NCBI GenBank assembly: GCA_044226845.1 | Contig: JBGAGG010000004.1 | Span: 254,732 to 278,731, forward strand | Direction: 5' to 3' | From: Ignavibacteria bacterium | GTDB lineage: Bacteria; Bacteroidota; Ignavibacteria; Tepidaquicellales; Tepidaquicellaceae | DNA: 24,000 nt | Shown here: positions 1 through 16,640 of the stretch, one piece after another | How the letters are laid out: each line of letters starts with the position of its first letter | How positions within the stretch are numbered: the first letter of the stretch is position 1 | Notes under the pieces: generated by a model | Told to the model about the DNA's origin: nothing | The model's database searches: none | What the model saw: only the letters and a program-made list of their open reading frames with translations | Made by a program: the position numbers and the translations under genes

Positions 1-533
1 ACAACATCCTCCAGATTAGAGCCGTCAATATTACATCTCATAATTTTTTTCATACCAACACCGTTATCTGCAAAATACAATTTTCCTCCGTAAAGATCAT
101 ATGCAACATAACCGGGTGATACAAGACCTGTCGAAACAATATCTGTTATTCCCGTCCCTGTAAGCGTAGACCTTTGGATTTTTTTCGTAGAGTTATCTGC
201 CCAGAACATTCTGTTGTTATTGCCGTCTATTGCAATTCCTCTTGGTCCTGCAATGCCGTCGGCAGAAGAAAGTATAGGTGTAACAACCAAAGAACCAAGA
301 TCGATTTTTTTAATTGTTGATGCTGCAAAATCCGTCCAGTATAATTCATTAGCATCCATGTCGGTTGCAAGAGCATAACCTGATGCTATACCGGTAAGAA
401 TATCGGTTGTAATCCCTGAACCGTCTATATTATGCTCTTGTAGTTTTCCGGAAGAGCCGTCTGTCCAGTATATTTTTTGCGCAAATGTTTCCGAGAAAAT
501 AAAAAGTAAAAGTACTATAAAATATTTTTTCAT
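1..533 (-). CDS. Secreted YWTD (LDL-receptor class B) repeat beta-propeller protein; N-terminal part only, the gene continues past the left edge
   Basis: Absent from the ORF track because there is no stop codon in the window. ATG is at 533-531 on the minus strand. My translation: MKKYFIVLLLFIFSETFAQKIYWTDGSSGKL...ELYWTDFAASTIKKIDL...RMFWADNSTKKIQRSTL...KLYFADNGVGMKKIMRCNIDGSNLEDV. This is a Sec-type signal peptide followed by four repeats of about 43 aa with a YWTD, FWAD or YFAD core. Confidence 0.75.
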   Translation of the reverse strand, partial: MKKYFIVLLLFIFSETFAQKIYWTDGSSGKLQEHNIDGSGITTDILTGIASGYALATDMDANELYWTDFAASTIKKIDLGSLVVTPILSSADGIAGPRGIAIDGNNNRMFWADNSTKKIQRSTLTGTGITDIVSTGLVSPGYVAYDLYGGKLYFADNGVGMKKIMRCNIDGSNLEDV

Positions 534-580
534 GACACAAAATTTTCTTTTAAAAAAGATCATTAAAATTTTATTGCAAA

Positions 581-1309
581 TTAGTTTTGTAAAGGGAAAA
601 TCCCAAACATAGCAATAGAGAAGTTAATCGCCAGGCAAGGCTGTATATTAGAATGCGGCTGGTTTCCCCCTGACATCCCCATTGAGGATGTATTAAGAAT
701 TCCGTTCGATGATGATGCATATGAATCTATACCATCAGCATTTTGTGAAACATAATTATTAGAAGGACTTAAAAAAGAACCTGATGTAGTGCTTGCATTT
801 ATTGAATGATTATGCGCCGGTATCTGATTTGTTGTTAATGTAACTGCTTCAGTTCCTCCTGACTGCCCCATGAAATAAGAACTTAAACCTGGACCCTGCC
901 CCTGATGAACCGGCACTCTGCTTCTTAAATCCGGAAGAGCAAAATTTGTTTCTCCATTTCCGCCGAATGTAGTGCCAATAAGCTGGAATAAAGCCTCGTT
1001 ATCGAGAATTGGTATTATCTGACCGTTACATAATAGCCAACCTGAAGGAGCATAATTAAAACTTGCCATCATTATATTTCCTATAAATGGCTGAGAACCG
1101 CCGCTTGGAATATAATCTTTAATTATTTCGCCGTTACGCTTCACATAAATAAAGCCTGTTTTAGATTTAACATCTGCAAATAGGTTTCCCGGATTAGCAG
1201 CTAATCCTAATGCAAAGATTGAACCGATTGATTTCATCATAAAATTTCTTCTGCCGGAATCCTTTTGAAAATTTTTTTCAGTTTTATTATTCTTTTTGAA
1301 GAAGTTCAT
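581..1309 (-). CDS. Phage tail collar domain (MdpB/COG4675-like) protein with a Tat-like leader; paralog 3 of 3
   Basis: 242-aa ORF. Collar-domain pattern: PFIGNIMMASFNYAPSGWLLCNGQ...LFQLIGTTFGGNGETNFALPDLRSRVPVHQGQGPGLS...IPAHNHS...GGNQPHSNIQPCLAINFSIAMFGIFP. The N-terminus has GRRNFMMKS followed by the hydrophobic stretch IGSIFALGLAA. Confidence 0.8.
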   Translation of the reverse strand: MNFFKKNNKTEKNFQKDSGRRNFMMKSIGSIFALGLAANPGNLFADVKSKTGFIYVKRNGEIIKDYIPSGGSQPFIGNIMMASFNYAPSGWLLCNGQIIPILDNEALFQLIGTTFGGNGETNFALPDLRSRVPVHQGQGPGLSSYFMGQSGGTEAVTLTTNQIPAHNHSINASTTSGSFLSPSNNYVSQNADGIDSYASSSNGILNTSSMGMSGGNQPHSNIQPCLAINFSIAMFGIFPLQN

Positions 1310-1332
1310 AGTTTTAAAATTTAATTTTTATT

Positions 1333-2058
1333 TTAACTTTGTGAAGGAAATATTCCCTGCAGAGCAATACAATAATTTAAAGTAAGATAAGGCTGTATAT
1401 TTGTATGAGCCTGATTTCCTCCTGTATTTGTTACAGTTGAGGGATTTAAAGTAGTATTACTTGAACCTGCATATGATTTCACACCCTCGCCATATGCTGC
1501 AAAATAATTATTAGCGGGGTCAGATTGTGGACCCACACTTGAACTTCCGCTTAAACTATGATTATGTGCAGGAAGCTGAGATGTTAAAAGTGTTACAGTT
1601 TCAGTTCCGGTTACCTCTCCAATTGTATAATTGGAAAGTCCGGCTCCTTGTCCGTAACAAAGCGGTGCACGCCCCCGCAAATCAGGCAGAGCAAAATTTT
1701 GAACACCATTACCACCGTAAAAAGTGCCAAGAAGCGCAAACAACCCATTATTTTGTGCAATAGATAAAATCTGCCCATTGCACTGCGCCCAATTCCTTGG
1801 AGCAAAGCTAAATGGAAAAATTCCTATCTCACCTAAATATGGAGAATCTCCTGCAGAAGGCTTATAGTTATTAATAACTTCTCCATTTTGCTTTATATAT
1901 AAAAACCCGGTTTTTGACTTTATAGCAAATAATTCTTCAGCTTTGCTGAGGACTGCAACTCCAAAAAGTGCTGCCATTGATTTCATGATAAAATTTCTTC
2001 TATCCTTTGTTTTACTTTTTAAAGGATCCAGTATATATTTATTATTCAAAAGACTCAT
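1333..2058 (-). CDS. Phage tail collar domain (MdpB/COG4675-like) protein with a Tat-like leader; paralog 2 of 3
   Basis: 241-aa ORF. Contains PYLGEIGIFPFSFAPRNWAQCNGQ...FALPDLRGRAPL...LPAHNHS...GGNQAHTNIQPYLTLNYCIALQGIFP. The leader is DRRNFIMKSMAALFGVAVLS. Confidence 0.8.
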   Translation of the reverse strand: MSLLNNKYILDPLKSKTKDRRNFIMKSMAALFGVAVLSKAEELFAIKSKTGFLYIKQNGEVINNYKPSAGDSPYLGEIGIFPFSFAPRNWAQCNGQILSIAQNNGLFALLGTFYGGNGVQNFALPDLRGRAPLCYGQGAGLSNYTIGEVTGTETVTLLTSQLPAHNHSLSGSSSVGPQSDPANNYFAAYGEGVKSYAGSSNTTLNPSTVTNTGGNQAHTNIQPYLTLNYCIALQGIFPSQS

Positions 2059-2092
2059 ATTATTTTTTTAAAATTATAAATGATTTACTTTT

Positions 2093-2821
2093 TTAAGGAC
2101 GGGAAGGAAATAATCCCTGTGTTGCAATGCAAAAGTTTATAGAAAGTACAGGCTGAATATTATTATGTGCATTACCGGAGCCTGTATCACCAACAGCAGA
2201 GCTGTTTAATAATAAATTGGGGGTATCTGCGTATGCTCCTATACCCTCTGCATTTTGCGCCGGATAAGAATTTGAAGGATTCGGCGTAGTTCCTATACCC
2301 GAGTTAATACCAATAGAATGCGTATGAGAAGGAATTTCTGAGCTCTGCAAAATTATGCTTTCATCCCCGGTCGTCTCTCCGATAATATAATTTGAAAGAC
2401 CTGACCCCTGTCCCATATGAACAGGAATTCTTCCACGAAAATCCGGAAGCGCAAATGTTGTAGTGCCGTTTCCACCATAATAATTGCTAAGAAGAGAGAA
2501 CAATGCCGTATTTCCGTTAATGTTAAGTATCTGCCCATTGCATTTAGCCCAGCCTATTGGTGCAAAGCTGAAACCAAAAATATTTATCTGACCTATATAA
2601 GGCTCGGAGTCCCCCATAGGCTGATAATCATTAATCACTTCACCATTTTGCTTTACATATATATATCCGGTTTTTGATTCCATAGAAAATAAATCTTCGG
2701 CATTTGAAAGAACTGCAGCACCGAATAAAACGGCAAGAGAATTCCGTATAAAGCTTCGCCTTGCTTCATTCTCTTTTTTGTAGAGAGGATTTAGAAGAAT
2801 TTTTTTCTTAAAAAGATTCAT
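2093..2821 (-). CDS. Phage tail collar domain (MdpB/COG4675-like) protein with a Tat-like leader; paralog 1 of 3 (first gene of the cluster)
   Basis: 242-aa ORF. Contains PYIGQINIFGFSFAPIGWAKCNGQ...FALPDFRGRIPVHMGQGSGLS...IPSHTHS...NAHNNIQPVLSINFCIATQGLFP. The leader is ARRSFIRNSLAVLFGAAVLS. Confidence 0.8.
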   Translation of the reverse strand: MNLFKKKILLNPLYKKENEARRSFIRNSLAVLFGAAVLSNAEDLFSMESKTGYIYVKQNGEVINDYQPMGDSEPYIGQINIFGFSFAPIGWAKCNGQILNINGNTALFSLLSNYYGGNGTTTFALPDFRGRIPVHMGQGSGLSNYIIGETTGDESIILQSSEIPSHTHSIGINSGIGTTPNPSNSYPAQNAEGIGAYADTPNLLLNSSAVGDTGSGNAHNNIQPVLSINFCIATQGLFPSRP

Positions 2822-3225
2822 CGGGTAATTTTTAAATTTGGTAAAATATTAACGATAAGAAAATTTGGATATTCTTAGGGAGTTATTTAGCTAACATGCT
2901 AAATTTTCTTTCGTGTTACTGTTGTTAATTTGGGATAAACGGAGTAACGAAAGCTATAGGGGGAAAAATATGTATGTGCTGATGAGAATTTATAAAAAGT
3001 TTTTGAAATAAAAAACACGATATTTAATATTAATAATTTTTATTTTTAAATTTTTAATTTTTAATTTTGCAGAAAGGTTAAAAAATATTTTAAAAGTAAG
3101 ATGTAATTATAAAAGCTTTAATATACTTACAAAGTAAAATCGCAGAAATTATATTTTTAAATGAGTGATAATGTTAATTTTTTTTTGTTAAATTTGTAAA
3201 ACCGTAGAAAGTAAAAATTTCAATC

Positions 3226-3918
3226 ATGAAAAAAATAGTTATCTCCCTGATAGTTATGTTCATTTCCCTTGGAAATATAAAGGCGCAAGGTCTTTATACT
3301 TTCGCAGATAAAACAACTACTATAGGAATAAGCGGCGGAGGTTATACTTTAAATAACAGCAGCAACTACGGACCCACCGGTGAAATTGTTTTATGTATCA
3401 ATGGTGCTTTCGATATAGGCGGAAGATTTGCTTACCGTCAGTTTTTCCCTGACCAGAATCCGGGACAAACAGGTTTCATGTCGGATAATAAATACTCTGC
3501 ATTTATAAACTGGTATATGGTAAAGTGCAACCTATCAAAAATTAAAATTATTTTTGCTATCGGAGCAGAGGGCTCCTATAATAAAGATAATTTAGTTACA
3601 AACGTAGAGGGCTTGAATGTTTATACTGCAAATGTAAACGGAACTTTCGGAATGAGATTTGACTTCGCAAAGAAGAAAATGTTCCTGCTGCCTAATATTG
3701 TTCTTGGTACAGAATTTTTCAGAAGATATACTACCGATGGTGTAAATGAAAGACAAGCTGCTTTCAATCAGACTATTTACGGAATTTCAAGAATAGGATT
3801 TGACTGGGGAATAACAATCGGACAGTCTTCATCTATTGTTGCTTCATTCAAAAGAAAAGACGAAGGAAGATTCGGTCTGGGATTTTCAGGTGATTTAAGA
3901 GTTGTGATGGGATTTTAA
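3226..3918 (+). CDS. Outer-membrane beta-barrel protein (small porin/OmpA-barrel-like), function unknown
   Basis: 230-aa ORF. Signal peptide MKKIVISLIVMFISLGNIKAQ, alternating Gly/aromatic-rich strands, and a C-terminal ...LRVVMGF with terminal Phe, as is typical of OMP barrels. Confidence 0.55.
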   Translation: MKKIVISLIVMFISLGNIKAQGLYTFADKTTTIGISGGGYTLNNSSNYGPTGEIVLCINGAFDIGGRFAYRQFFPDQNPGQTGFMSDNKYSAFINWYMVKCNLSKIKIIFAIGAEGSYNKDNLVTNVEGLNVYTANVNGTFGMRFDFAKKKMFLLPNIVLGTEFFRRYTTDGVNERQAAFNQTIYGISRIGFDWGITIGQSSSIVASFKRKDEGRFGLGFSGDLRVVMGF

Positions 3919-3947
3919 AACACGCAAATAAATTTTATATGTAACAC

Positions 3948-3980
3948 AAAAGGGAGCTTATGGTTCCCTTTTTGTTTTAT
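3948..3980. terminator. Bidirectional rho-independent terminator between convergent genes
   Basis: The arm aaaaggga(gc) at 3948-3957 pairs with (gg)tccctttt at 3962-3972. It is followed by tttgtttt on the plus strand, and by ttttgtgtt on the minus strand. Confidence 0.6.
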
Positions 3981-3991
3981 AAAAATTGTTA

Positions 3992-4531
3992 CTAAACTGC
4001 CTGCATTTTTCTTATAAGTCTTATCTGTCCTCTGTGATTTATCTCATCTTCAAAAACGTGATACCAGTCGAAGTAATTATTTCCTTCTCCTCCAAATACC
4101 GGCGAAAATACTTTTGGCTTTAACAGCCAATCATCATCATATTTAGAGAATTCTTCAAGTGTTATATTTCGCTCTCTAGCTAATTCATCGAGATAATATT
4201 CTAATGGATTTCCTTTTATTTTTTCTCTTCCTAAATCCCCTAAATCCAGAGCAGGTTTAATCGGTTCTATTTCTTCTTCAGTCATTTCCCTGCCCTCAAA
4301 AGTATAAACCTGATACCACTTATCAACTGCGGCAATGTGCGCAAGCAGTGCGCCTATTGAATTTGATGTTTCACTGAACTGATAATCAAGCTGCTCGGTA
4401 GATAATCCTTTAACACTTTGAAGAGTTGTAACTCGCGCATAATTCATCATAATAATAAGATGACTCATAATTGGAGTAAAGCCGTCTAATGGTTGTATGA
4501 TGTAAGGATTTTCAATTATAACTTCTTTCAT
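3992..4531 (-). CDS. DinB-family (DinB_2-like four-helix-bundle metalloprotein) protein
   Basis: 179-aa ORF. Contains IGALLAHIAAVDKWY and a C-terminal FEDEINHRGQIRLIRK; the spaced His residues are typical of the DinB superfamily. Confidence 0.65.
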   Translation of the reverse strand: MKEVIIENPYIIQPLDGFTPIMSHLIIMMNYARVTTLQSVKGLSTEQLDYQFSETSNSIGALLAHIAAVDKWYQVYTFEGREMTEEEIEPIKPALDLGDLGREKIKGNPLEYYLDELARERNITLEEFSKYDDDWLLKPKVFSPVFGGEGNNYFDWYHVFEDEINHRGQIRLIRKMQAV

Positions 4532-4580
4532 AGGGAAAATTTCAAGAAATATAAATTAAATTAGATTTGTTTAACAGGTG

Positions 4581-4620
4581 AAAACAAAAAACCCGAAATC
4601 GTTTTCACAATTTCGGGTTT
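4581..4620 (-). terminator. Rho-independent terminator downstream of the sigma factor gene
   Basis: cccgaaat (4592-4599) pairs with atttcggg (4610-4617). On the minus strand the hairpin is followed by ttttttgtttt. Confidence 0.7.
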
Positions 4621-4644
4621 TCAATTTCGTATGAATAATTATTT

Positions 4645-5502
4645 TTACTGTCCTAAGTAAGCTTTAAGACCTTTGCTTCTTGAAGCCTGTCTTAATCTTC
4701 TTATCGCTTTTTCTTTTATCTGTCTTACTCTTTCTCTGGTGAGTTTGTATTTATCACCGATTTCTTCAAGTGTAAGCGGATTTTCTTTTTCAAGTCCGTA
4801 GTATAATTTCACAACTTCTTTTTCTCTCTGTGAAAGCGTATCTAAAGCTCTTTCAATTTCAATTCTTAAAGAGTCCTTCAGCAATTCAGTATCAGGCTGC
4901 TTTTCTTTCTTATCAGGCATTATATCGATAAGCTTTGTATCTTCGCCGTGAATAGATGGAGCATCCATTGAAACGTGACCGCCTGAGTTCTTCAGAGTTT
5001 CCTGTACTTCGTAAACTGACATATCGAGCTGCTCTGCAATTTCAAGAACGTTTGGCGCTCTTTCATTTGCCTGTTCAAGCTCGCTGATTGTTTTTGCAAT
5101 CTTGCTCTTCTGCTGAACGATGTTAAGCGGCAATCTTACAACTCGTGACTGTTCTGCCAGTGCCTGTAAAATTGACTGTCTTATCCACCATACTGCATAG
5201 GAGATAAATTTAAATCCTCTTGTTTCATCGAATTTCTTAGCTGCCTTAATAAGTCCGAGGTTACCTTCATTGATTAAATCATTCAATGATAAGCCCTGAT
5301 TCTGGTATTGTTTCGCTACTGATACTACGAACCTTAGATTCGCCTTTACAAGAAGATCGAGCGCTTTCTTATCACCTTTTTTTATTCTTTTTGCGCAGTC
5401 AATTTCCTGATCTACGGTTAAAGGTGTTGTTTTGCTGATTTCTTTTAAATAAATATCAGTGGATTGGTTTTCCCTGCTTGTATATTGTTTGCCTAATTTC
5501 AT
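4645..5502 (-). CDS. rpoD: RNA polymerase sigma-70 family factor; short primary-type sigma (Bacteroidota-style sigma A lacking region 1.1)
   Basis: 285-aa ORF. Region 2: [57 protein letters not shown]. Region 4.2: [29 protein letters not shown]. Confidence 0.85.
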
Positions 5503-5531
5503 TTAAATTAAATTGGCTTTTAAAATTACTC

Positions 5532-5966
5532 TTACTGAAAATTACTATTGCTAAAAATTAATTGTGGTGTATTATACTGCTGTATTATATGTGGTCGTAC
5601 AATTTTTATTCCATATTTCTCTGCATATTCACTCTTCATATTTGTAAACGAAACAATCGGAAGTTTAGTTTCGATTAGAATCGCCGTTACACATGCTTCT
5701 CTGTAGTTTACATTATCTTTCAGAAGCTTCCCGATAGTGTGAGAGTACTTATAAGGTATTCCCAGAACTCCCGAACCGAAGAAAGACTGCTTTGCATTTT
5801 CTTCCTGTTCTTTTGTTTCGCACTTTGCAAAAACTTCCGAAGCATTAATGACTGAAGTATAGCAGTCAAATAAGCTTAAACATTTTAAAAGAACTGAATC
5901 TTCATTACCTTGAAGATGTTTCAGATAAACATCGGTATCAAGAAAAACTTCGAATTCACTTTTCAT
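5532..5966 (-). CDS. Hypothetical protein, PIN-like fold suspected (degenerate acidic residues)
   Basis: 144-aa ORF. The N-terminal strand VFLDTDVYLKHL and the later INASEVF resemble PIN/VapC motifs. The C-terminal region LPIVSFTNMKSEY lacks the usual T-x-D acidic residues. Its ATG overlaps the stop of the upstream ORF (ATGA at 5963-5966). Confidence 0.4.
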   Translation of the reverse strand: MKSEFEVFLDTDVYLKHLQGNEDSVLLKCLSLFDCYTSVINASEVFAKCETKEQEENAKQSFFGSGVLGIPYKYSHTIGKLLKDNVNYREACVTAILIETKLPIVSFTNMKSEYAEKYGIKIVRPHIIQQYNTPQLIFSNSNFQ

Positions 5967-6280
5967 TCTACTTCCTGATCTTTTTTAAAAGCGCCGAAAG
6001 AATTTAGCAATAAAAAAGTAGAATTTTCATCCAGATTTAATTTCTTTGATAAAAATTCTACTTGTGAACTCTTGTTATCAGCAATTTCTAATTTGCTTTG
6101 AGAATTATTTTGTTTCTTCACAGAAAGAACGATCAGCTCAACATCTTCATCATCACCTTTGTTATCATCATTTGAATCTTTTTGTATCTCATCATAACAT
6201 CCGGCTAATTCTTCTTTATTAAAAAGAAGTTCACCTTTGCTGTTCAGCTTTGCTCTGACTCTATTAAGCTTCTGTGCCAA
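5963..6280 (-). CDS. Hypothetical acidic, low-complexity protein; possible partner of the PIN-like protein
   Basis: 105-aa ORF with no internal Met. The only plausible start is TTG at 6280-6278, inside the last 17 nt of rplW. It has a basic N-terminus, an acidic centre (DSNDDNKGDDEDVE), and is coupled by ATGA to the next gene. Coding status is uncertain. Confidence 0.35.
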   Translation of the reverse strand: MAQKLNRVRAKLNSKGELLFNKEELAGCYDEIQKDSNDDNKGDDEDVELIVLSVKKQNNSQSKLEIADNKSSQVEFLSKKLNLDENSTFLLLNSFGAFKKDQEVE

Positions 6281-6560
6281 AGAAGTCTATTTTATCTTCT
6301 TTATGCAGAGTAACGAATGCTTTTTTCTTATCAGAACGGAATCCTTCAAATCTTCCTTTTTTAGTGAACTGAGATTTAGCTTTACCCTTCGCAACAGAAG
6401 TAGTAACGCCTGTAACTCTCACTTTGAATCTTTTTTCAACAGCATTTGCGATTTCGATTTTATTCGAATCTTTGGAAACTTCAAATACATATTTGTTAAG
6501 ATTCTCAGAAAGTGAAGTATTTTTTTCTGTGATTAACGGTTTTATTAAAATTGATTTCAT
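6264..6560 (-). CDS. rplW: 50S ribosomal protein L23
   Basis: 98-aa ORF, MKSILIKPLITEKNT...YVFEVSKDSNKIEIANAVEKRFKV...KKAFVTL. It sits in the canonical position after rplD. Confidence 0.93.
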   Translation of the reverse strand: MKSILIKPLITEKNTSLSENLNKYVFEVSKDSNKIEIANAVEKRFKVRVTGVTTSVAKGKAKSQFTKKGRFEGFRSDKKKAFVTLHKEDKIDFFGTEA

Positions 6561-6589
6561 ATCTTAAACTTAAAATGTGTTCCTAAATT

Positions 6590-7216
6590 TTATGACAAAC
6601 TTTTGCACAAAGAATCTACTGCTGATTTTTGCATAACAATCATTTTGTTGTCAAGCAATTCATACGTTGCAGCTAAGTCAGAAATAACAATATTGCACTT
6701 AGGCATATTTCTTCCTGATTTATAAACGTTATCATTTTTTCCGCCGAGAAGTATCAATGTCTTTGTAGTATCGAGCTTCAGAGCTTTGAGAATATTGTTC
6801 AGTTGTGATGTTTTCGGTGCGTCAAAAGAAAAATCCTCAACAATCATTATCTGATTTTCTTTTGCCTTCATGCTAAGCGCGCTTTTTCTTGCAAGTCTTG
6901 CTGCCTTCTTTGGAAGGGAAAGCTTGTAGGTATGCGGTTTAGGGCCGTGGATGTTACCGCCGCCCGGCATCAAAGGAGAACGGTTTGTTCCTCTTCTTGC
7001 GCCGCCTGTACCTTTTTGTCTGAACGGTTTTTTACCGCCGCCGCGTACTTCTGCTCTTTGCTTTGTCTTTGCAGTTCCTTGTCTCTGGTTAGAGAGATAA
7101 GTTCTTACTGCCATATAAATCAAATGCTGATTTGGCTCGACTTCAAAAATGTCTGAAGGTAATGTTACTTTCTCGCTTGATTGAGAACCGTCGAGTTTAT
7201 ATACGTTAAGTTCCAT
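6590..7216 (-). CDS. rplD: 50S ribosomal protein L4
   Basis: 208-aa ORF containing RGGGKKPFRQKGTGGARRGTNRSPLMPGGGNIHGPKP. Confidence 0.95.
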   Translation of the reverse strand: MELNVYKLDGSQSSEKVTLPSDIFEVEPNQHLIYMAVRTYLSNQRQGTAKTKQRAEVRGGGKKPFRQKGTGGARRGTNRSPLMPGGGNIHGPKPHTYKLSLPKKAARLARKSALSMKAKENQIMIVEDFSFDAPKTSQLNNILKALKLDTTKTLILLGGKNDNVYKSGRNMPKCNIVISDLAATYELLDNKMIVMQKSAVDSLCKSLS

Positions 7217-7250
7217 AATTTTTATAAATGATTGCTATTGCGTGATAAAA

Positions 7251-7868
7251 TTATTTGTAGATTTCAACAAATCCGGATTTTGTACCGGGAACAGCTCCTT
7301 TAACTAAGATAAGATTAGAGTCTGCAAAAATTTTAATAACTTTTAAATTTCTTACAGTAATCCTGTCTCCGCCTGTTCTTCCTGCCATTCTTTGTCCTTT
7401 AAAAACTCTTGAAGGATAAGATGATGCGCCGATGGAACCCGGGGCTCTTTGTCTATCTGACTGACCGTGTGTTCTTTGACCGCCTGAGAAGCCGTGTCTT
7501 TTCATAACACCCTGAAAACCTTTACCTTTTGAAGTGCCTGTTACTTTTACAGTATCGCCTTCGTTGAATATATTAACTTTGACCTGTTCACCTGCTTTTA
7601 CATCTGCAAGCGAGAAGTCTCTGATTTCTTTTGTAAATCTTAATGCAGGAATGTTTAATTTCTTGAACTTTCCTTGCATAGGTTTATTAACAGTCTTTTC
7701 TCTTCTTTCACCAAAACCCAACTGTACTGATTCGTAGCCGTCTGTTTCTTTTGTTTTTATCTGTGTAACGTAACAAGGACCAGCTTCGATGACTGTAACC
7801 GGAACAGCATTACCATTTTCCTGGTAATAAGTAGTCATTCCGATTTTTTTTCCTAAAATTCCTATCAT
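7251..7868 (-). CDS. rplC: 50S ribosomal protein L3
   Basis: 205-aa ORF containing MIGILGKKIGMT...GTSKGKGFQGVMKRHGFSGG...THG. Confidence 0.95.
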   Translation of the reverse strand: MIGILGKKIGMTTYYQENGNAVPVTVIEAGPCYVTQIKTKETDGYESVQLGFGERREKTVNKPMQGKFKKLNIPALRFTKEIRDFSLADVKAGEQVKVNIFNEGDTVKVTGTSKGKGFQGVMKRHGFSGGQRTHGQSDRQRAPGSIGASSYPSRVFKGQRMAGRTGGDRITVRNLKVIKIFADSNLILVKGAVPGTKSGFVEIYK

Positions 7869-7958
7869 TGGTATTATATTTAATACTTGGTAGTATCCTT
7901 AATTTGAAAATAATTGGCAGAGCGCTTTTTTAACTAATAAAAGCAAAAATAAAAAAGC

Positions 7959-8267
7959 TTATACTTTGATCTCGATATCTACACCGCCGGGAGGATCAAG
8001 TTTTGTAAGAGCGTCGATTGTTTTATTTGAAGAATTCAAAATATCAATCAGTCTCTTATGCGAGCGTGTTTCAAATTGCTCTCTTGATTTTTTATCCACG
8101 TGTGGTGAACGGTTGACAGTATAAGTGTTTTTCTTGGTTGGAAGTGGAATTGGTCCGCTTACAACTGCGCCTGTTGATTTAATCGTTTTGATTATTCTTT
8201 CTGTCCATTTATCTAATAAATTATGATCGTAAGATCTTAACTTTATTCTGATTTTTTGAGCTGCCAA
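7959..8267 (-). CDS. rpsJ: 30S ribosomal protein S10 (TTG start)
   Basis: 102-aa ORF containing [19 protein letters not shown]...GPIPLPT...[17 protein letters not shown]. Confidence 0.95.
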
Positions 8268-8289
8268 TTTAATTGATTTAAATTTTACA

Positions 8290-8320
8290 AAATAAAACCG
8301 CAGACTTAAAGTCTGCGGCT
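8290..8320 (-). terminator. Hairpin plus U-run between tuf and rpsJ (tuf terminator and/or S10-operon leader attenuator)
   Basis: ccgcagact (8298-8306), loop taa, agtctgcgg (8310-8318). On the minus strand the hairpin is followed by ttttattttg. Confidence 0.65.
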
Positions 8321-8345
8321 GATTTTATCTGATTACTGTGTAATT

Positions 8346-9578
8346 TTATTCGAGAATTTTTGTAACAACACCAGCACCTACTGTACGTCCGCCTTCTCTG
8401 ATAGCGAACTTCAATCCGTCTTCCATAGCGATTGGTGAAATTAACTCAATTGTTAATTTATCCATGTTATCGCCGGGCATAACCATCTGTACATTTTCAG
8501 GTAAGTGAACTACACCTGTTACGTCAGTTGTTCTGAAATAGAACTGAGGTCTGTAGTTTGTTGAGAAAGGAGTGTGTCTTCCACCTTCTTCTTTCGACAA
8601 TACGTAAACCTGAGCTTCGAATTTTTTATGAGGAGTAATAGATCCTGTTTTAGCAAGAACCATTCCTCTTTCGATTTCATTCTTATCTACACCTCTTAAT
8701 AAAAGTCCGCAATTGAAACCTGCTGTAGCAACGTCCAATTCTTTATTGAACATTTCTGCGCCTGTTACAACTGTTTTTTTCTTTGCACCAAGACCGATAA
8801 GTTCAACTTCTTCACCAACTTTTACTTTACCTCTTTCAATTCTACCTGTTGCTACTGTACCTCTACCTGTGATAGAGAATACGTCTTCAACCGGCATCAA
8901 GAATTCTTTATCAACGTCTCTTTGCGGCTCGGGAATGTAGCTGTCAACAGCGTCCATTAAATCGAAGATAGGTTTGTATCTTTCGTCATCTAATGGTGCA
9001 TCTGATACACCGGCTTCCATAGCTTTTAAAGCGGAACCTCTGATGATTGGAACATCGTCACCAGGATATCCGTTTGCTGTCATGATGTCTCTTAATTCTG
9101 ATTCAACAACTTCTAATAATAATTCAGCGTCTTCTTCTGTTTTTTCTTGTTCTCTGATTATATCAACTTTATTTAAGAATACAACAAGTGCAGGTACACC
9201 TACTTGTCTTGCAAGTAAGATATGCTCTCTTGTTTGCGGCATAGCACCGTCAGTTGCAGCAACTACTAATATAGCGCCGTCCATCTGAGCAGCACCTGTG
9301 ATCATGTTCTTAATATAGTCAGCGTGACCCGGACAGTCTACGTGTGCATAGTGTCTTTTTTCTGTTTGATATTCTACGTGAGCTGTTGCAATCGTAATCC
9401 CTCTTGCTTTTTCTTCCGGAGCTTTATCAATTTCGTCAAATTTCTTAATTTTGCCGCCGAATTTCTTCGAAAGCGTCATTGTTATTGCAGCGGTCAATGT
9501 GGTCTTACCGTGGTCAACGTGACCGATTGTACCTATATTGACGTGCGGCTTGGATATATCAAATTTCTCTTTAGCCAT
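8346..9578 (-). CDS. tuf: Translation elongation factor Tu (410 aa, with two short lineage-specific insertions)
   Basis: Contains [18 protein letters not shown] and NKVD motifs, and is near-collinear with E. coli EF-Tu from memory. A Shine-Dalgarno-like aaaggag sits about 10 nt upstream of the ATG. Confidence 0.97.
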
Positions 9579-9716
9579 TTTATAATTTCTCCTTTAATGA
9601 GATTTTTTGTTTTAATAAATAATTTTATGTGTCCAATAGGAATACTTTCATATTCCGGAAGATTCTTTTTTTATTCTGGTAAAAGTGTTTACACACTCTC
9701 CCGGTCTTAAAAAACG

Positions 9717-9790
9717 TGGGTCAGGGAGGAATTGAACCTCCCACCTCGTGCTTATAAGGCACGCGCTCTAACCATCTGAGCTACTGACCC
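9717..9790 (-). tRNA. tRNA-Ile, anticodon UAU (no encoded CCA)
   Basis: Minus-strand sequence: GGGTCAG TA GCTC AGATGGTTA GAGC G CGTGC CTTATAA GCACG AGGTG GGAGG TTCAATT CCTCC CTGACCC A. The cloverleaf is perfect, and the 7-nt anticodon loop C-U-UAU-A-A gives anticodon UAU. The body resembles bacterial tRNA-Ile. Confidence 0.85.
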
Positions 9791-9999
9791 AGACCGGGAA
9801 TTTCATATCCGGAAAACTTTTTTCTGATATGAAATTTTATAGAACGTTTTATCGTGTCTAATTGACGAGTTCTATTCTGATTTTACTCAGAACTGACCCT
9901 GAAACTTATTTTAAAGAACTATCTTGATTTCAGATTTCCGATTTCAGAATTCTGATTTTTTATCAAATTTGAATTCTGTACTCAGCATTCTGAATTCTA

Positions 10000-12093
10000 T
10001 CAGGCTACTGCTTCTTTGCCTTTAACTTTTTCAATTATCTGTTCAGATACTGATTTTGGAGCTTCATCATAATGTGCAAACTGCATTGAGTAAATCGCGC
10101 GGCCTTGTGTCATACTTCTTAATGTTGTCGCATAACCGAACATTTCAGAAAGCGGCACTGTAGCTTTGATAACCTGTGCATCATTTCTTTGTGACATACC
10201 TTCAATCTTACCTCTTCTTGAGCTTAAGTCACCCATTACGTCACCCATGTAATCATCCGGAGTTACAACTTCAACATCCATGATTGGTTCAAGTAAAACA
10301 GGTTTTGCTTTTCTTGCGCCTTCTTTGAATGCCATGGAACCGGCAATCTTGAACGCCATTTCCGATGAGTCAACATCGTGGAATGAACCGTCAAATAATC
10401 TGATCTTGATATCCTCAACAGGGTAACCTGCAAGAACACCGTTCTTCATTGCTTCAATAATACCTTCAGATACCGGCTTGATAAATTCTTTCGGAATTGT
10501 ACCGCCAACGATTGCGTTTTCGAATACATATCCTTTACCTTTTTCATTTGGCTCGATGTCAATCCATACGTGACCGAACTGACCTTTACCGCCTGATTGT
10601 CTGACGAATTTACCTTCCTGTGTAACTTTCTTCTTAATTGTTTCTTTGTAAGCAACCTGTGGTTTACCTACATTAGCTTCAACTTTGAATTCTCTTTTTA
10701 ATCTGTCAACAATAATTTCCAAGTGTAACTCACCCATACCTGCGATAATTGTCTGACCTGTTTCTTCGTTAGAAGATACTCTGAATGTCGGATCTTCATC
10801 AGAAAGCTTTCCTAATGATTCACCAAGTTTATCCTGGTCAGCCTTTGTTTTCGGCTCGATAGCAATAGAGATAACAGGCTCAGGAAATGTGATTTTTTCA
10901 AGTATGATTGGATCTGATTCATCTGATAATGTATCACCTGTTTTTGTATATTTCAAACCTACTGCTGCTGCAATATCACCTGCATATACTTCTTTTATAT
11001 CTTCTCTGCTGTTTGCATGCATCTGAAGAATTCTTGAAAGTCTTTCTTTTTTGCCTGCGTTTGAATTATATAAGTAGCTTCCTGCTTCTGCTTTACCTGA
11101 GTAAACTCTGAAGAAGGTTAACTTACCTACATAAGGGTCAGTCATAATTTTGAAAGCCAATGCTGAGAATTTTTCATCATCGCTTACTTTTCTTGTAACA
11201 TGGTCATCTGTATATAAATGATGTCCTTCGATATCACCGACATCTAACGGTGAAGGAAGAAGTTCAACAACTTTATCTAATAAATTTTGTACACCTTTGT
11301 TTTTGAATGAAGAACCGCAGATAACAGGAACGATCTTAATATCGATTGTAGCTGTTCTCAAAGCTGCTAAAATTTCAGCTTCTGTTATAGGCTCCTGATT
11401 TAAATATTTTTCAATAAGCTTATCATCTACATCTGCAACTGCTTCTAATAATGCCGCTCTTGCTTCTTCTGCGCCTGCTCTTAAAGCATCAGGAATTTCA
11501 GTATCTTTAAAAGTAAGACCCATTGTTTCCATATCGAAAACTCTGGCTTTCATTGTAATCAAATCAATAATACCGTTGAACATATCACCTTCTCCCATAG
11601 GAAGAGTGATAGGCACAGCGTTAGCTTTTAATCTGTCTTTCATCATAGCGATAGCGTTGGCAAAGTTAGCACCTGTTCTATCCATCTTATTAACGAATGC
11701 AATTCTTGGGACTTTATACTTATCCATTTGTCTCCAAACGGTTTCTGACTGCGGTTCTACACCGCCTACAGAACAGAATAAAGCAACAGCGCCGTCAAGA
11801 ACTCTTAACGAACGCTCTACCTCGGCTGTGAAATCCACGTGGCCGGGTGTATCTATTATATTAATTCTGTGATTATTCCATGAACATGTAGTGGCAGCTG
11901 AGGTAATTGTAATACCTCTTTCTTTTTCCTGTTCCATCCAGTCCATCGTTGCAGCACCTTCGTGCACTTCACCAATTCTGTGAGAACGACCTGTATAATA
12001 AAGTATTCTTTCAGTTGTTGTTGTTTTACCGGCGTCAATGTGAGCACTGATTCCGATATTTCTTGTCTTTTCTAATGAGACTTGTCTTGGCAT
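10000..12093 (-). CDS. fusA: Translation elongation factor G
   Basis: 697-aa ORF containing [32 protein letters not shown] and NKMDR. Confidence 0.97.
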
Positions 12094-12212
12094 TTTTGCA
12101 GTTACTGTTTTTAAATTTTAACGAATATTACAACACTTATATCTTCATTACATCTTCTTATAAGTAAAAGTGAAATCCTGATATTGTTTTATAACAAGGG
12201 AGAATATCTTAC

Positions 12213-13608: not shown

Positions 13609-15324
13609 ATGGCAAAAAAACCACTCGGACAATGGAACTCTTTAGTTCAATTAGTCCAATCTAGAACCACAGATGAACACTCGTATGCTTTTAAAGATGT
13701 TGATACCGTTCAGAATGCAATTCATGCGTCTTTACTTTATCATTCAGATTATACTGGTGATTTGAAATGGAGAGTATTATTTTTTAGGGCAGATACCAGA
13801 ACTACACCTTTTGTACTATCAAGAATTTGGAATCCAAATTTTGAAGATCCGCATATAGTCGGTAATGTTGCAAGAATCACGCAACAAGATATTCCATTTT
13901 GGGGTAATCCCTCATTATTTCCTGAACCATATCTGTTTTGCTCAGGACATACTTTTTTAGGAAATGGCAAGTTATTAGTAGTTGGGGGACATCTTTTGCC
14001 AAATTCTAACAGTGAGCCTTTTGCTAGAGGTACAAAATTTTCATTCATATACGATACAAGCCGTGGCTGGAAAGTTGCAACAGCAGGAGACCCTAATCCT
14101 CTAGATCCCGGTCAGCTTATGGAGGATGGTAGGTGGTATCCAACTGTAACTTTATTACCTGACGGCAAAGTTTTAGCAATGTCTGGATACAAATCAGAAT
14201 TTGGTATAATTCCTGAAACAAACAGCAGTCTAAGATTAGAGATTAATGACGTACCTGAAATATACGATCCGGAAACAAGACTTTGGACGTCCTTAGGAAG
14301 CGGCTCTAGAATGCCTGATGATTTTACTGAAGTATTAATAGATGAAAATGAACCTCAATATCCGGGCATTACTTATCCGCATTGCCATGTTATTCCTTTT
14401 GGAGAATTAGCAGGTCAAGTACTCTATACCTCTCCTCAAAAGCAGGCTTGGGTATTTAATCCTTATCCTGAAGGATTTAGTGAATTTTGGAATACCTTTG
14501 GGGATGTAAGAGAGGGCGAAATAAATGAGGGTGGTTGTACAATATTGATGCATCTGCGATATAACAGCGAAGATGCGGTTATCGTAACACTGGGAGGAGG
14601 TCACCATGAGGCTACAGATGAAGCTTATTCAATTAATTTGAACGATTCTTCACCTGAATGGAATACTCTTGACGTAATGAGTTCACCAAGGTCTCATGCT
14701 AACGCTGTCTTACTTCCGGACGGTACCTTGTTGGTTATTGGAGGAAACAAATCAGGAACGCATTTCGAGCCGGTATATCATGCTGAAATTTATAACCCAA
14801 ATCCTGGAGCAGGTGAGGATACCTGGACAGTTCTGCCTGAAATGCTATCCCCAAGAAATTATCATTCCACAGCAATTTTACTTCCTGATGGAAGAGTTTG
14901 GGTTGGTGGAGGTGATTTTAAGTTTGATGAAAGCCAACAATTTGAACATAACATGAATAACATGGAAATTTTTAGCCCGGGATATTTATTCGATGGAGAT
15001 AGACCAATAATTAGTTCTTGTCCTTCAAGTATATCATACACTGGTTTCTATACCTTAATAACAGACAAACCAATTGATAATGTAGTTCTGATAAAGACAG
15101 GTTCAACTACCCATGCATTTGATATGAGTCAGAGGGCAATGTTTTTAGAGATAGAACTTATATCAGAAGGTGAAGATATATATGAATATAAATTCTATCC
15201 TCCTGGTGATACAAATATCATGCAGCAAGGTATTTATATGTTATTCGCTAACAGACCAAAAGATGCGAGCAATTCTGGATTATCCTATATACCGTCAGTT
15301 GCTTCTTTTGTTTTGCTTAATTAA
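13609..15324 (+). CDS. Radical copper oxidase (galactose oxidase / glyoxal oxidase-like): kelch propeller plus C-terminal DUF1929-type domain; no signal peptide
   Basis: 571-aa ORF. All galactose-oxidase active-site positions can be aligned by eye:
- LFCSGHTFLGNGKLLVVGG, with C111 as the thioether Cys.
- GRWYPTVTLLPDGKV, the cross-linked Tyr.
- RNYHSTAILLPDGRVWVGGG, the axial Tyr and a His ligand.
- GSTTHAFDMSQR, the second His ligand.
- GIYMLFAN...IPSVASFV, the C-terminal domain.
An in-frame TAA at 13600-13602 prevents any N-terminal extension. Confidence 0.8.
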   Translation: MAKKPLGQWNSLVQLVQSRTTDEHSYAFKDVDTVQNAIHASLLYHSDYTGDLKWRVLFFRADTRTTPFVLSRIWNPNFEDPHIVGNVARITQQDIPFWGNPSLFPEPYLFCSGHTFLGNGKLLVVGGHLLPNSNSEPFARGTKFSFIYDTSRGWKVATAGDPNPLDPGQLMEDGRWYPTVTLLPDGKVLAMSGYKSEFGIIPETNSSLRLEINDVPEIYDPETRLWTSLGSGSRMPDDFTEVLIDENEPQYPGITYPHCHVIPFGELAGQVLYTSPQKQAWVFNPYPEGFSEFWNTFGDVREGEINEGGCTILMHLRYNSEDAVIVTLGGGHHEATDEAYSINLNDSSPEWNTLDVMSSPRSHANAVLLPDGTLLVIGGNKSGTHFEPVYHAEIYNPNPGAGEDTWTVLPEMLSPRNYHSTAILLPDGRVWVGGGDFKFDESQQFEHNMNNMEIFSPGYLFDGDRPIISSCPSSISYTGFYTLITDKPIDNVVLIKTGSTTHAFDMSQRAMFLEIELISEGEDIYEYKFYPPGDTNIMQQGIYMLFANRPKDASNSGLSYIPSVASFVLLN

Positions 15325-15395
15325 GTTTAAATAGAAACTTTTTAATAACGCCTCACATTATAATGTTACAATGTAAGGTTAATATTTCTATAAAT

Positions 15396-16640
15396 ATGAA
15401 AAAATTTATTGTGATTTTTTTATTGATGTTTTGTTCTAATCTATTTTCCCAATGGATAAATCAAAAATACCCCGCAGGTTCGCAGTACATTTATTTTAGC
15501 TCTTACTTTTTTAATGGCAGCACAGGTTTCATCGTAGGTTCCGGTCTCTCCATATTAAAAACCACTAATGGGGGGAGTAATTGGGATTTAAGATTTTTAA
15601 ATGGATATGACTTCAGAGGGATTGATTTCATAAGTAACTCCACAGGGATTGCTGCGGGATTTTATACAACTGGTCTATATAGTAGAACAACAGATGGGGG
15701 AGCAAACTGGACTAAATATTATAATCCCGGAGGAAATTTTCTTTACAAAATAAAGTATGCATCAGGAGATACTTTATACGGTTGCGGTTACACTGGATAT
15801 ATAATGAAATCTACAAACGGCGGCTTAGAATTCTTTCAACAAATTTCAAATACTACGGAAATACTATCTGCAATGCATGTTGTTAACAACAATATTGTTT
15901 ACGCAGGCGGAGCAAACGGTAAACTTGTTAAAACCACAAATGGAGGAACAAATTGGTTTTCACTACAATCAAATATGGATTATGATATTATTGATATGCA
16001 GTTTTTAAATGCCAATATGGGATATTTTGCGGCATATGGCAGCAGTGGAGGTATATTTAGAACGGTTAATGGCGGCTTAAATTGGACGCGTCTTCCTATT
16101 ACACCCGGAATACAAATGACGGCAGTATATTATGTAAACTCGAGCGTTGGTTATGCAGTTGGTGTTTTTCAGGCCGGTAAATTCTCATATCACAAAGCAA
16201 TTAAAACTACTGACGGCGGACTTGACTGGCAGGAACTGCCTACCGGAAATTTTTTATGGATGCGTTCCGTTTATTTCGTGAATGAATATACAGGTTGGAT
16301 AACAGGTGACGGAAATCAGATTTTAAAAACAACATCCGGGGGTTTAACTTTCATAAATGAAAATGGTGAAACAATTTCTGATTTTAATTTAGAGCAAAAC
16401 TACCCAAACCCTTTTAATCCATCTACAATTATCAATTATCAGTTAACAATTAACAGCTTCGTAATTTTAAATGTTTATGATGTGAACGGAAAATTACTAA
16501 AAGAACTTGTAAATGAAAAACAAAGTGCGGGAAACTATTCAGTCGATTTTGACGGAAGCGGACTGCCCTCCGGCACATACATTTACCGCCTGCAAGCAGG
16601 CGATTTTTCAGAGACAAAAAAAATGGTGCTGCTGAAGTAG
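15396..16640 (+). CDS. BNR/Asp-box repeat beta-propeller (Ycf48-like) with a T9SS C-terminal sorting domain
   Basis: The ORF is open from 15363, but the Met at 15396 begins the signal peptide MKKFIVIFLLMFCSNLFSQ. There are seven Asp-box-like repeats (TTNGGSNW, TTDGGANW, STNGGLEF, TTNGGTNW, TVNGGLNW, TTDGGLDW, TTSGGLTF). The C-terminus LEQNYPNPFNPSTIINYQL...GTYIYRLQAGDFSETKKMVLLK is a Por_Secre_tail type A domain. Confidence 0.8.
   Translation: MKKFIVIFLLMFCSNLFSQWINQKYPAGSQYIYFSSYFFNGSTGFIVGSGLSILKTTNGGSNWDLRFLNGYDFRGIDFISNSTGIAAGFYTTGLYSRTTDGGANWTKYYNPGGNFLYKIKYASGDTLYGCGYTGYIMKSTNGGLEFFQQISNTTEILSAMHVVNNNIVYAGGANGKLVKTTNGGTNWFSLQSNMDYDIIDMQFLNANMGYFAAYGSSGGIFRTVNGGLNWTRLPITPGIQMTAVYYVNSSVGYAVGVFQAGKFSYHKAIKTTDGGLDWQELPTGNFLWMRSVYFVNEYTGWITGDGNQILKTTSGGLTFINENGETISDFNLEQNYPNPFNPSTIINYQLTINSFVILNVYDVNGKLLKELVNEKQSAGNYSVDFDGSGLPSGTYIYRLQAGDFSETKKMVLLK

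Follow-up and report, generated by a model that had tools for sequence, protein, structure and literature searches.

The closest described relatives of the genes considered here are the RhiB/MrpB proteins of COG4675. MrpB comes from Microcystis, and RhiB is a product of the rhiABC(D) operon, which quorum sensing controls in Rhizobium leguminosarum. The proteins of this family are small stand-alone collars of the Pfam family PF07484, about 170 amino acids (aa) long and leaderless, with an HxH...NxQPY...GIFP signature, encoded in short operons of non-phage genomes and regulated by quorum sensing or light. Such MdpB/RhiB collars are abundant in soil and water bacteria, occur in the symbiosis-linked rhiABC operon and have been detected in soil metaproteomes. 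Here we analysed a stretch of 24,000 nucleotides (nt) from an Ignavibacteria bacterium (assembly GCA_044226845.1, contig JBGAGG010000004.1, positions 254,732 to 278,731 of the forward strand; the window), at one end of which three collar genes followed by a propeller gene make up a predicted four-gene operon. The window proteins share the collar and the signature of RhiB/MrpB but add a 45-residue leader with a twin-arginine (RR) motif and, on the mature protein, a conserved N-terminal hairpin segment of 20-25 residues. The generic MdpB triplets surveyed here adjoin DUF6916, a GNAT acetyltransferase and a giant cadherin-like protein, and not a YWTD propeller tagged for the type IX secretion system (T9SS). 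By sequence the genes belong to PF07484 and to the MdpB/RhiB family, and they have its tandem triplet layout; they represent a predicted envelope-targeted version of this common three-gene family, previously undescribed.

Structural precedents come from viruses. The fibres represented by T4 gp12 (1OCY, 1H6W/5LYE, 5IV5) and by 8KEC share the collar motif FxLPDxRG and the fold class with the window proteins; unlike these, they are C-terminal domains of virion fibres of 379-527 aa, form homotrimers and have no signal peptides. Gp12 trimers are described as knitted and as binding metal (Thomassen et al. 2003). In the DSLV2 virophage, three small PF07484 proteins encoded one after another assemble into a heterotrimeric fibre of 1:1:1 stoichiometry with affinity for the lipopolysaccharide (LPS) of Synechococcus, as shown by co-expression, native polyacrylamide gel electrophoresis and electron microscopy (PMC12724248, J Virol 2025). 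The idea of a heterotrimer, put forward for the window in an initial annotation made from the sequence alone, therefore has an experimental precedent. The DSLV2 proteins differ in being viral structural proteins with neither export signals nor a propeller partner, and the window triplet seems to have arisen by a triplication of its own.

Two export systems are relevant to the comparison. "Hitchhiker" substrates of the twin-arginine translocation (Tat) pathway, such as HybOC and DmsAB of Escherichia coli, fold, load their cofactors and oligomerise in the cytoplasm before export. Known hitchhikers are redox enzymes, whereas in the window triplet every subunit carries its own predicted leader; a locus of an Eisenbacteria metagenome-assembled genome (MAG; L015), with one leaderless subunit, comes closer to them. 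Like type A cargo of the T9SS, the propeller partner combines a Sec signal with a C-terminal PF18962 domain, the latter seen in the related loci L177 and L178. To our knowledge, genetic coupling of a T9SS cargo to a partner exported by Tat has not been described, and a literature search for the tail collar together with Tat or T9SS found nothing.

Our reading of the locus, to which we give a probability of roughly 0.55, is that a folded, metal-bound collar trimer would be exported by Tat and would form a binding module with the T9SS-tagged surface propeller. An intertwined collar trimer would fold in the cytoplasm around a metal ion; in this lineage it would most likely be an A-B-C heterotrimer of the three paralogs, a step towards which, taken by itself, we incline slightly. 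The folded assembly would then cross the inner membrane via Tat and act in the envelope with the co-transcribed, Sec-exported six-bladed YWTD propeller, which may reach the cell surface through its T9SS sorting domain and is probably anchored there. Collars and propeller together would constitute a glycan-, LPS- or cell-binding module for adhesion or recognition, that is, a phage fibre tip in cellular use. The analysis establishes the structure of the genes, their family and fold class, the conservation of the leader, the T9SS tag of the partner and its exclusive linkage to leader-bearing collars; dependence on Tat, metal binding, the composition of the trimer, its physical contact with the propeller and the ligand are the parts that we infer. 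For the collar family as a whole, this variant suggests the envelope or surface as the place of action, judging by its predicted export signal and T9SS tag, and offers the surface-directed YWTD propeller as a candidate partner.

Leader-bearing collars and their T9SS-tagged partner

The three collar genes lie head to tail on the minus strand at 2093-2821 (paralog 1, 242 aa), 1333-2058 (paralog 2, 241 aa) and 581-1309 (paralog 3, 242 aa), separated by 34 and 23 nt, and the fourth minus-strand gene starts with an ATG at 533, 47 nt downstream of paralog 3, and continues past the window start. The open reading frame (ORF) list thus agreed with the layout given in the initial annotation, and no convincing terminator was seen between the four genes. 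All three proteins matched PF07484 over the complete model (positions 1-57 of 57; 86.6-90.6 bits against a gathering cutoff of 24 bits; E of 1.1e-24, 2.1e-25 and 6e-26 for paralogs 1, 2 and 3), which bore out the collar/MdpB core proposed earlier; weak matches to Gp10_C were found in two of the three (residues 145-227). Pairwise identity was 47-54% (54 and 48% to paralog 1, about 49% for the third pair), as the earlier estimate by eye of about one half had it. The extra segment SKTG[FY][IL]Y[IV]K.NGE[IV]I, also predicted there, was present in all three between residues 48/49 and 62/63 (minus strand, 2633-2677, 1873-1917 and 1121-1165 for paralogs 1 to 3, ending in NGEVI in the first two and NGEII in the third). 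Together with the FALPDLRGR block (entropy 0.31 bits; FALPDFR at 2435-2455 in paralog 1, FALPDLR at 1675-1695 and 923-943 in paralogs 2 and 3), SKTG..NGE (0.47 bits) was the most conserved part of the collars; only the closest, Ignavibacteria-like relatives had it. Among the most variable parts was the sequence that follows the HxH motif.

The leaders span residues 1-46 of paralog 1 (2684-2821, RR at 2756-2761) and residues 1-45 of paralogs 2 (1924-2058, RR at 1996-2001) and 3 (1175-1309, RR at 1247-1252), all on the minus strand. Their motifs are RRSFIRNS (residues 21-22), RRNFIMKS (20-21) and RRNFMMKS (20-21). An n-region of about 20 residues precedes each motif; 12-19 uncharged residues come after it, and then an LF[AS] site at residue 45-46. 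The general form RR-x-F-[LIM]-x-K matches the published Tat consensus S/T-R-R-x-F-L-K. In an alignment of 28 longer homologues R21 and F23 were invariant, as were both histidines of HxH, and R20 was found in at least 90%; RRxF was kept in 27 of these 28 leader-type homologues, which come from several lineages, while the flanking residues varied. The best 12-residue Kyte-Doolittle mean of the h-region was lower in the collars (1.9-2.2) than in the Sec signals of the window (2.3-3.1), the latter being the 19-21-residue signals of the propeller and of the genes at 3226-3918 and 15363-16640. More distant leader-bearing relatives (P0064, P0079, P0083, P0097, P0101, and P0115) presented RRxFLxK with another linker in place of SKTG. 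TatA and TatC genes, 11 of each, have been counted across 11 Chlorobia/Ignavibacteria genomes (PMC3827258). The earlier proposal of a twin-arginine leader on each paralog was thus supported by the presence, conservation and Tat-like length and hydrophobicity of the motifs, and we infer that the leaders are Tat signal peptides on which export would depend.

If the leaders were instead ordinary Sec signals or N-terminal membrane anchors with a chance RR, the proteins would be exported unfolded. Three relatives (P0070, P0073, and P0076) do carry clearly Sec-like leaders, L179 shows RKRF in place of RRxF, and Pfam and NCBIfam Tat models did not match, a result taken up below. Against this stand the near-invariance of RR-x-F-[LIM]-x-K across diverged homologues, the long n-region and the lower hydrophobicity of the h-region as compared with the Sec signals of the window; an intertwined, metal-centred trimer would also be the kind of substrate suited to Tat. 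We consider the Sec explanation highly improbable.

The 5' part of the propeller gene (positions 1-533, minus strand, 177 codons) encodes a Sec-type signal peptide of 19 residues (MKKYFIVLLLFIFSETFA; 477-533), followed by a YWTD beta-propeller recognised by Ldl_recept_b (PF00058, E 1.2e-14 on the window fragment, and 1e-19 to 6e-24 with 2-4 matched repeats in full-length orthologues). The complete gene was found in the near-identical loci L177 and L178, the former differing from the window at 26 of 2900 nt; it encodes 467 aa comprising the Sec signal, the propeller, an immunoglobulin-like domain and a C-terminal T9SS sorting domain (PF18962, Por_Secre_tail), which lies outside the window. All propeller orthologues carry Por_Secre_tail (E 4e-11 in L001). 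The initial annotation had spoken of a secreted fibre; this needs correction, as Tat in a diderm reaches the periplasm only, and a route to the surface is hinted at solely by the sorting domain of the partner, beyond the window.

The association of leaders with this partner was apparent in a genome scan (one genome per species; motif [TN]F[AG]LPD[LF]RGR; 80 loci; ORFs scored with a collar-core hidden Markov model) covering Proteobacteria, Acidobacteriota, Chloroflexota, Verrucomicrobiota, Bacteroidota, Actinomycetota, Myxococcota, Bacillota and other phyla. Only 4 of the 84 collar clusters were leader-bearing, so the leaders are unusual for collar proteins, as had been claimed: L008 (Ignavibacteria, two copies), L011 (Hymenobacter wooponensis, one copy), L015 (the Eisenbacteria MAG, three copies) and L039 (a Bacteroidota MAG, one copy). 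A T9SS-tagged protein was encoded directly downstream in all four leader-bearing clusters and in none of the 80 leaderless ones, a split whose probability by chance was calculated by hand as 1/C(84,4), about 5e-7. Three of these neighbours were YWTD propellers, and that of L011 had a beta-helix-like N-terminal part. The pair of leader-bearing collar and propeller recurred in further unrelated contexts (L006, L007, L093, L095, L179, and L180), with distances from a 4-nt gene overlap (L006) up to 358 nt (L180). When the search was started from the propeller side (a protein search and three context look-ups), homologues P0147 (44% identity) and P0151 (43%) were each found directly behind a leader-bearing collar gene, with leaders RKRFLTK in L179 and SRRGFLQK in L180, whereas a homologue at 33% identity had no such gene upstream. 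A metagenome scan with close propeller sequences gave 3 loci.

This indicated that the conserved module consists of one or more leader-bearing collars plus a T9SS-tagged propeller: the pairing of RR collars with a YWTD gene, suggested by the initial annotation, recurs, whereas the triplet is not constant, with one, two, three or nine collars. The module has so far appeared only in lineages labelled Ignavibacteria, Bacteroidota and Eisenbacteria, several contexts being unlabelled metagenome contigs; these three lineages belong to the FCB (Fibrobacteres-Chlorobi-Bacteroidetes) group. In a cultured strain, Hymenobacter wooponensis JCM 19491 (L011:9817-11967), a single RR-leader collar (QRRGLLKRLGALLGG...) was observed, followed by a T9SS-tagged protein of 475 aa that matched no Pfam family and whose repeat-rich N-terminal part is not of the YWTD type.

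It could be argued that collars and propeller are mere neighbours, the former remaining alone in the periplasm or held in the inner membrane by an uncleaved leader anchor, and the latter being an unrelated T9SS cargo. The proposed interaction is drawn from gene linkage, Ignavibacteria are rich in T9SS cargo (another is encoded at 15363-16640 and several flank L005, L007, and L178), and two of the three L091 triplets lack their own propeller. Adjacency is nevertheless kept across unrelated contexts in Ignavibacteria, a Bacteroidota MAG and an Eisenbacteria MAG; moreover, the linkage is exclusive to leader-bearing collars and was recovered from the propeller side too. We therefore judge mere neighbourhood rather improbable. 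An extension of the binding-module reading, in which the Tat-exported trimer docks on the propeller in the periplasm and leaves through the T9SS on the sorting domain of its partner ("piggy-back"), seems unlikely to us. If true, it would put a metal-centred heterotrimeric lectin resembling a phage fibre on the surface for recognition of cells or prey or for adhesion, and would provide a first link between Tat and T9SS as well as the first clue to localisation and function for the 30-year-old RhiB/MdpB family; should the collars really exit with the propeller, this cooperation of Tat and T9SS might represent a new secretion principle.

Copy number, ancestry and composition of the proposed trimer

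With paralog 2 as query, 7940 of the 8000 candidates scored were homologues at E<=1e-5, the named ones being annotated as "microcystin-dependent protein" or "phage tail protein". Similarity to MdpB/RhiB was strong (E down to 1e-117, 45-61% identity over a core of about 170 residues), and the C-terminal part of the family, with HxH, GGxQxHxNxQPY and GIFP, could be aligned end to end. About 30 of the best 120 matches had 220-245 aa and full coverage; most homologues measured about 170 aa and covered the C-terminal 70% only, the window proteins departing from this typical architecture by some 70 additional N-terminal residues (leader plus SKTG segment).

The 84 clusters of the genome scan comprised 61 triplets, 20 singletons, 2 pairs and 1 quadruplet, nearly all members being leaderless and starting with M-[ED]-PF[IL]GEI. 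Three diverged copies are thus the norm of the family and not, as first supposed, a peculiarity of this locus. In 47, 50 and 54 of the 61 generic triplets, for the three positions respectively, the nearest neighbour in another genome occupied the same position, and this position-specific orthology across phyla indicated that the generic triplet is an old A-B-C operon. Among IMG/VR contigs, 46 clusters had one collar, 5 had three, 2 had two, 1 had six and 1 had nine, the single-copy ones being mostly the ends of long fibre proteins; in bacteria and viral contigs alike, sizes of 3, 6 and 9 far outnumbered 2 or 4. Taken with the virophage result, triplets and their multiples of 6 and 9 make heterotrimeric fibre tips in bacteria a general, testable hypothesis.

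Some features of these clusters were recorded besides. Nine (L097:1-5456) and six (L102:5036-8235) tandem leaderless collar genes were seen on IMG/VR contigs classed as viral. Within 4 kb of generic leaderless triplets (L012-L087; examples of neighbours are L043:7726-13527, L020:7951-8511, and L042:9524-10015) we observed a GNAT acetyltransferase at 37 loci, DUF6916 at 27 loci and, at 42 loci, a giant protein of some 1900 aa in which a signal peptide is combined with Cadherin, Big_9 and Beta_helix domains. The generic triplet and its recurrent neighbours look like a widespread conserved operon, judged by gene order; no mention of DUF6916 was found in the literature search.

Copy number was more variable in the leader-bearing modules. 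A single collar per module was present in L006, L007, L039, L093, L095/L180 and L179, two in L008, and nine in L091; three were found in the window and L177/L178, in L001, L003, L005 and L015, and on a contig of 6237 nt (P0004, P0025, and P0049, with propeller P0146). The obligate heterotrimer of the initial annotation did not survive this comparison: leader-bearing homologues stand alone in six or more unrelated contexts and are paired in L008, so that the module does not require a heterotrimer. In L091 (positions 1438-12192; GCA_016307145.1; the same as L089/L090) three successive leader-type triplets were observed; a FecR-domain protein comes after the second and a propeller with a T9SS domain after the third, and the first two triplets have no propeller of their own. 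Two copies of the first triplet looked degenerate, the second collar without the SKTG segment and the third with SRKRF in place of RR.

A neighbour-joining tree was built with 111 core domains drawn from 220. The window paralogs grouped with each other and with leader-type singletons, and not with the generic A, B and C position types; the 12 window-like sequences (three positions in each of four genomes) formed one clade in the best tree with a bootstrap of 0.36, and the groups of positions 1, 2 and 3 were each supported at 0.74-0.88, position-1 orthologues of paralog 1 being found in L001, L003, L005 and L091. On these groupings the window triplet looks like a lineage-specific triplication, independent of the generic A-B-C triplet, and since leader and SKTG segment are common to the three paralogs, the triplication of one leader-bearing ancestor would be the most economical history. 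L015 (4039-7062) was different: its first collar is leaderless (MSTQPFVGEV), the second and third carry RRHFLGR, the three resemble three different generic triplet types, and a YWTD propeller with a T9SS domain follows. Such a mixed-leader triplet is possibly the pattern expected for the co-export of an assembled complex by the hitchhiker route.

The ratios of nonsynonymous to synonymous substitution rates (dN/dS) were 0.09-0.23 for each of the window paralogs, rough values given that dS was saturated; by this measure all three collars are under purifying selection. The propeller showed a dN of 0.06 (dN/dS 0.04) as compared with 0.18-0.37 in the collars, which have thus evolved about four times faster, as expected if they were the recognition surface. 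These rates fit a variable recognition tip on a constant scaffold.

The main competitor of the A-B-C heterotrimer is a set of three separate homotrimers, each a Tat-exported alternative tip with its own ligand specificity. Collars that carry a leader and have this propeller partner work singly in six or more contexts and, in L008, as a pair; few conserved positions are specific to one paralog, and the variability of the region after HxH would be consistent with diversified binding surfaces. On the other side, copy numbers are skewed to 3, 6 and 9 in bacteria and viral contigs, whole triplets have been duplicated as a unit in L091, position-specific orthology has been maintained, L015 keeps a leaderless subunit beside two leader-bearing ones, and a heterotrimer has been demonstrated for the analogous DSLV2 triplet. 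Separate homotrimers appear to us possible, on the doubtful side.

The predicted fold was examined for paralog 2. An AlphaFold2 monomer of the mature protein, based on a 67-sequence alignment, reached a predicted local distance difference test (pLDDT) score of 75 (>90 in the collar); the full-length model from a 28-sequence alignment reached 49 and was unusable beyond the collar domain. Foldseek matched the model of the mature protein in the Protein Data Bank (PDB) to the tail fibre of cyanophage A-1(L) (8KEC) and to T4 gp12 (5IV5, 1OCY, 1PDI) with probabilities of 0.97-1.00, and weakly to T4 gp37 (2XGF), so that in its modelled form the fold class is that of a phage tail-fibre receptor-binding tip. 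The HxH motif anticipated by the initial annotation was present in the three paralogs (at 2318-2326 within SHTHS, and at 1558-1566 and 806-814 within AHNHS, minus strand), and alignments of 28 and of 67 homologues showed it in every sequence. Its proposed equivalence to the histidine pair of gp12 was not confirmed: in a PDB profile search the collar aligned with gp12 residues 338-412 (E 3.5e-5), an alignment that ends before His445/447, while residues 97-181, including HxH, aligned instead with 8KEC and its motif LPSHQHG (E 7e-9). Axial metal binding by HxH in the window collars would be consistent with this conservation.

Given the fold, the triplet might be a decayed prophage or tailocin remnant, tail-fibre leftovers devoid of a cellular role, and matches to PHROGs tail families reached E 5e-25. 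We find this barely credible. No other phage gene lies within 24 kb, the locus is fixed beside the ribosomal protein operon in several diverged genomes, all the genes are under purifying selection and signal peptides are present; IMG/VR held no close relative, and the viral collar homologues in that database carry no leader. The initial annotation had likewise set the prophage idea aside, and the housekeeping neighbours argue in the same direction. A PADLOC search for defence systems gave no matches.

Several observations weigh against a Tat-exported heterotrimer that acts with the propeller. The collars themselves have no T9SS domain and Tat ends in the periplasm, which bears on their location and on their contact with the propeller. 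RhiA of the rhiABC operon has been used as a cytoplasmic marker, and the literature reports no biochemical function for any member of COG4675. With regard to the leaders, the h-region of paralog 2 consists of only 12 uncharged residues, and the Pfam TAT_signal and NCBIfam Tat models matched neither the whole proteins nor the isolated leaders, a null result that is uninformative because the same models also missed the textbook-like leaders of relatives. With regard to composition, single- and two-copy modules imply that homotrimers must be functional in relatives, the bootstrap of 0.36 for a single lineage-specific triplication is low, and the positions conserved within each paralog group yet different between groups, of which there were only 9, lend little support to a fixed A-B-C interface and are too few to decide for it or against it.

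Upstream region and neighbouring genes

Upstream of paralog 1 lies an AT-rich intergenic region of 404 nt (2822-3225, minus strand), common to a divergent gene. The best sigma-70-like match in it was TTAACA-18-TATAAT at 3177-3148 (11/12; found by a consensus scan whose rules may not fit Ignavibacteria promoters), and an Rfam search of the region matched no family.

The flanks of the window contain DinB/MST, sigma-70, the S10-L3-L4-L23 ribosomal genes, EF-Tu and EF-G; identical EF-Tu and sigma-factor sequences were found in MAGs labelled Ignavibacteria. The earlier description of DinB and ribosomal neighbours with no phage genes was accurate; the label "OMP" (outer-membrane protein) for the divergent gene at 3226-3918 was not confirmed: its 230-aa product has a signal peptide and ends in Phe, and it matched no Pfam family. 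This gene was rejected as a module member as it is not conserved outside the clade. Downstream of the propeller, genes for small leucine-rich repeat (LRR) proteins of about 141-143 aa, conserved in the clade, are interspersed with those for a pair of paralogs of about 485 aa that lack Pfam matches (L177:13020-17314, L003:12993-18115, and L005:15049-20699). The LRR and 485-aa genes were also excluded from the module because they are missing from distant contexts, though kept in the Ignavibacteria clade.

Other features of the window are independent of the collar operon. Two small genes on the minus strand (5532-6280; 105 and 144 aa, with no Pfam match) directly follow rplW (L23) and precede rpoD, so that the S10 ribosomal operon appears cut after L23; the same arrangement is kept in L001, L003, L005 and L177. 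Between the EF-G and EF-Tu genes, a tRNA-Ile with anticodon TAT (UAU) was located at 9716-9790 on the minus strand; tRNA-Ile(UAU) is an uncommon bacterial way of reading AUA. On the plus strand, within 13609-16640, a galactose-oxidase/Kelch-like protein of 571 aa with no obvious signal peptide precedes the second T9SS cargo gene of the window (15363-16640), which encodes a BNR/Sortilin-like propeller with a Sec signal and Por_Secre_tail.

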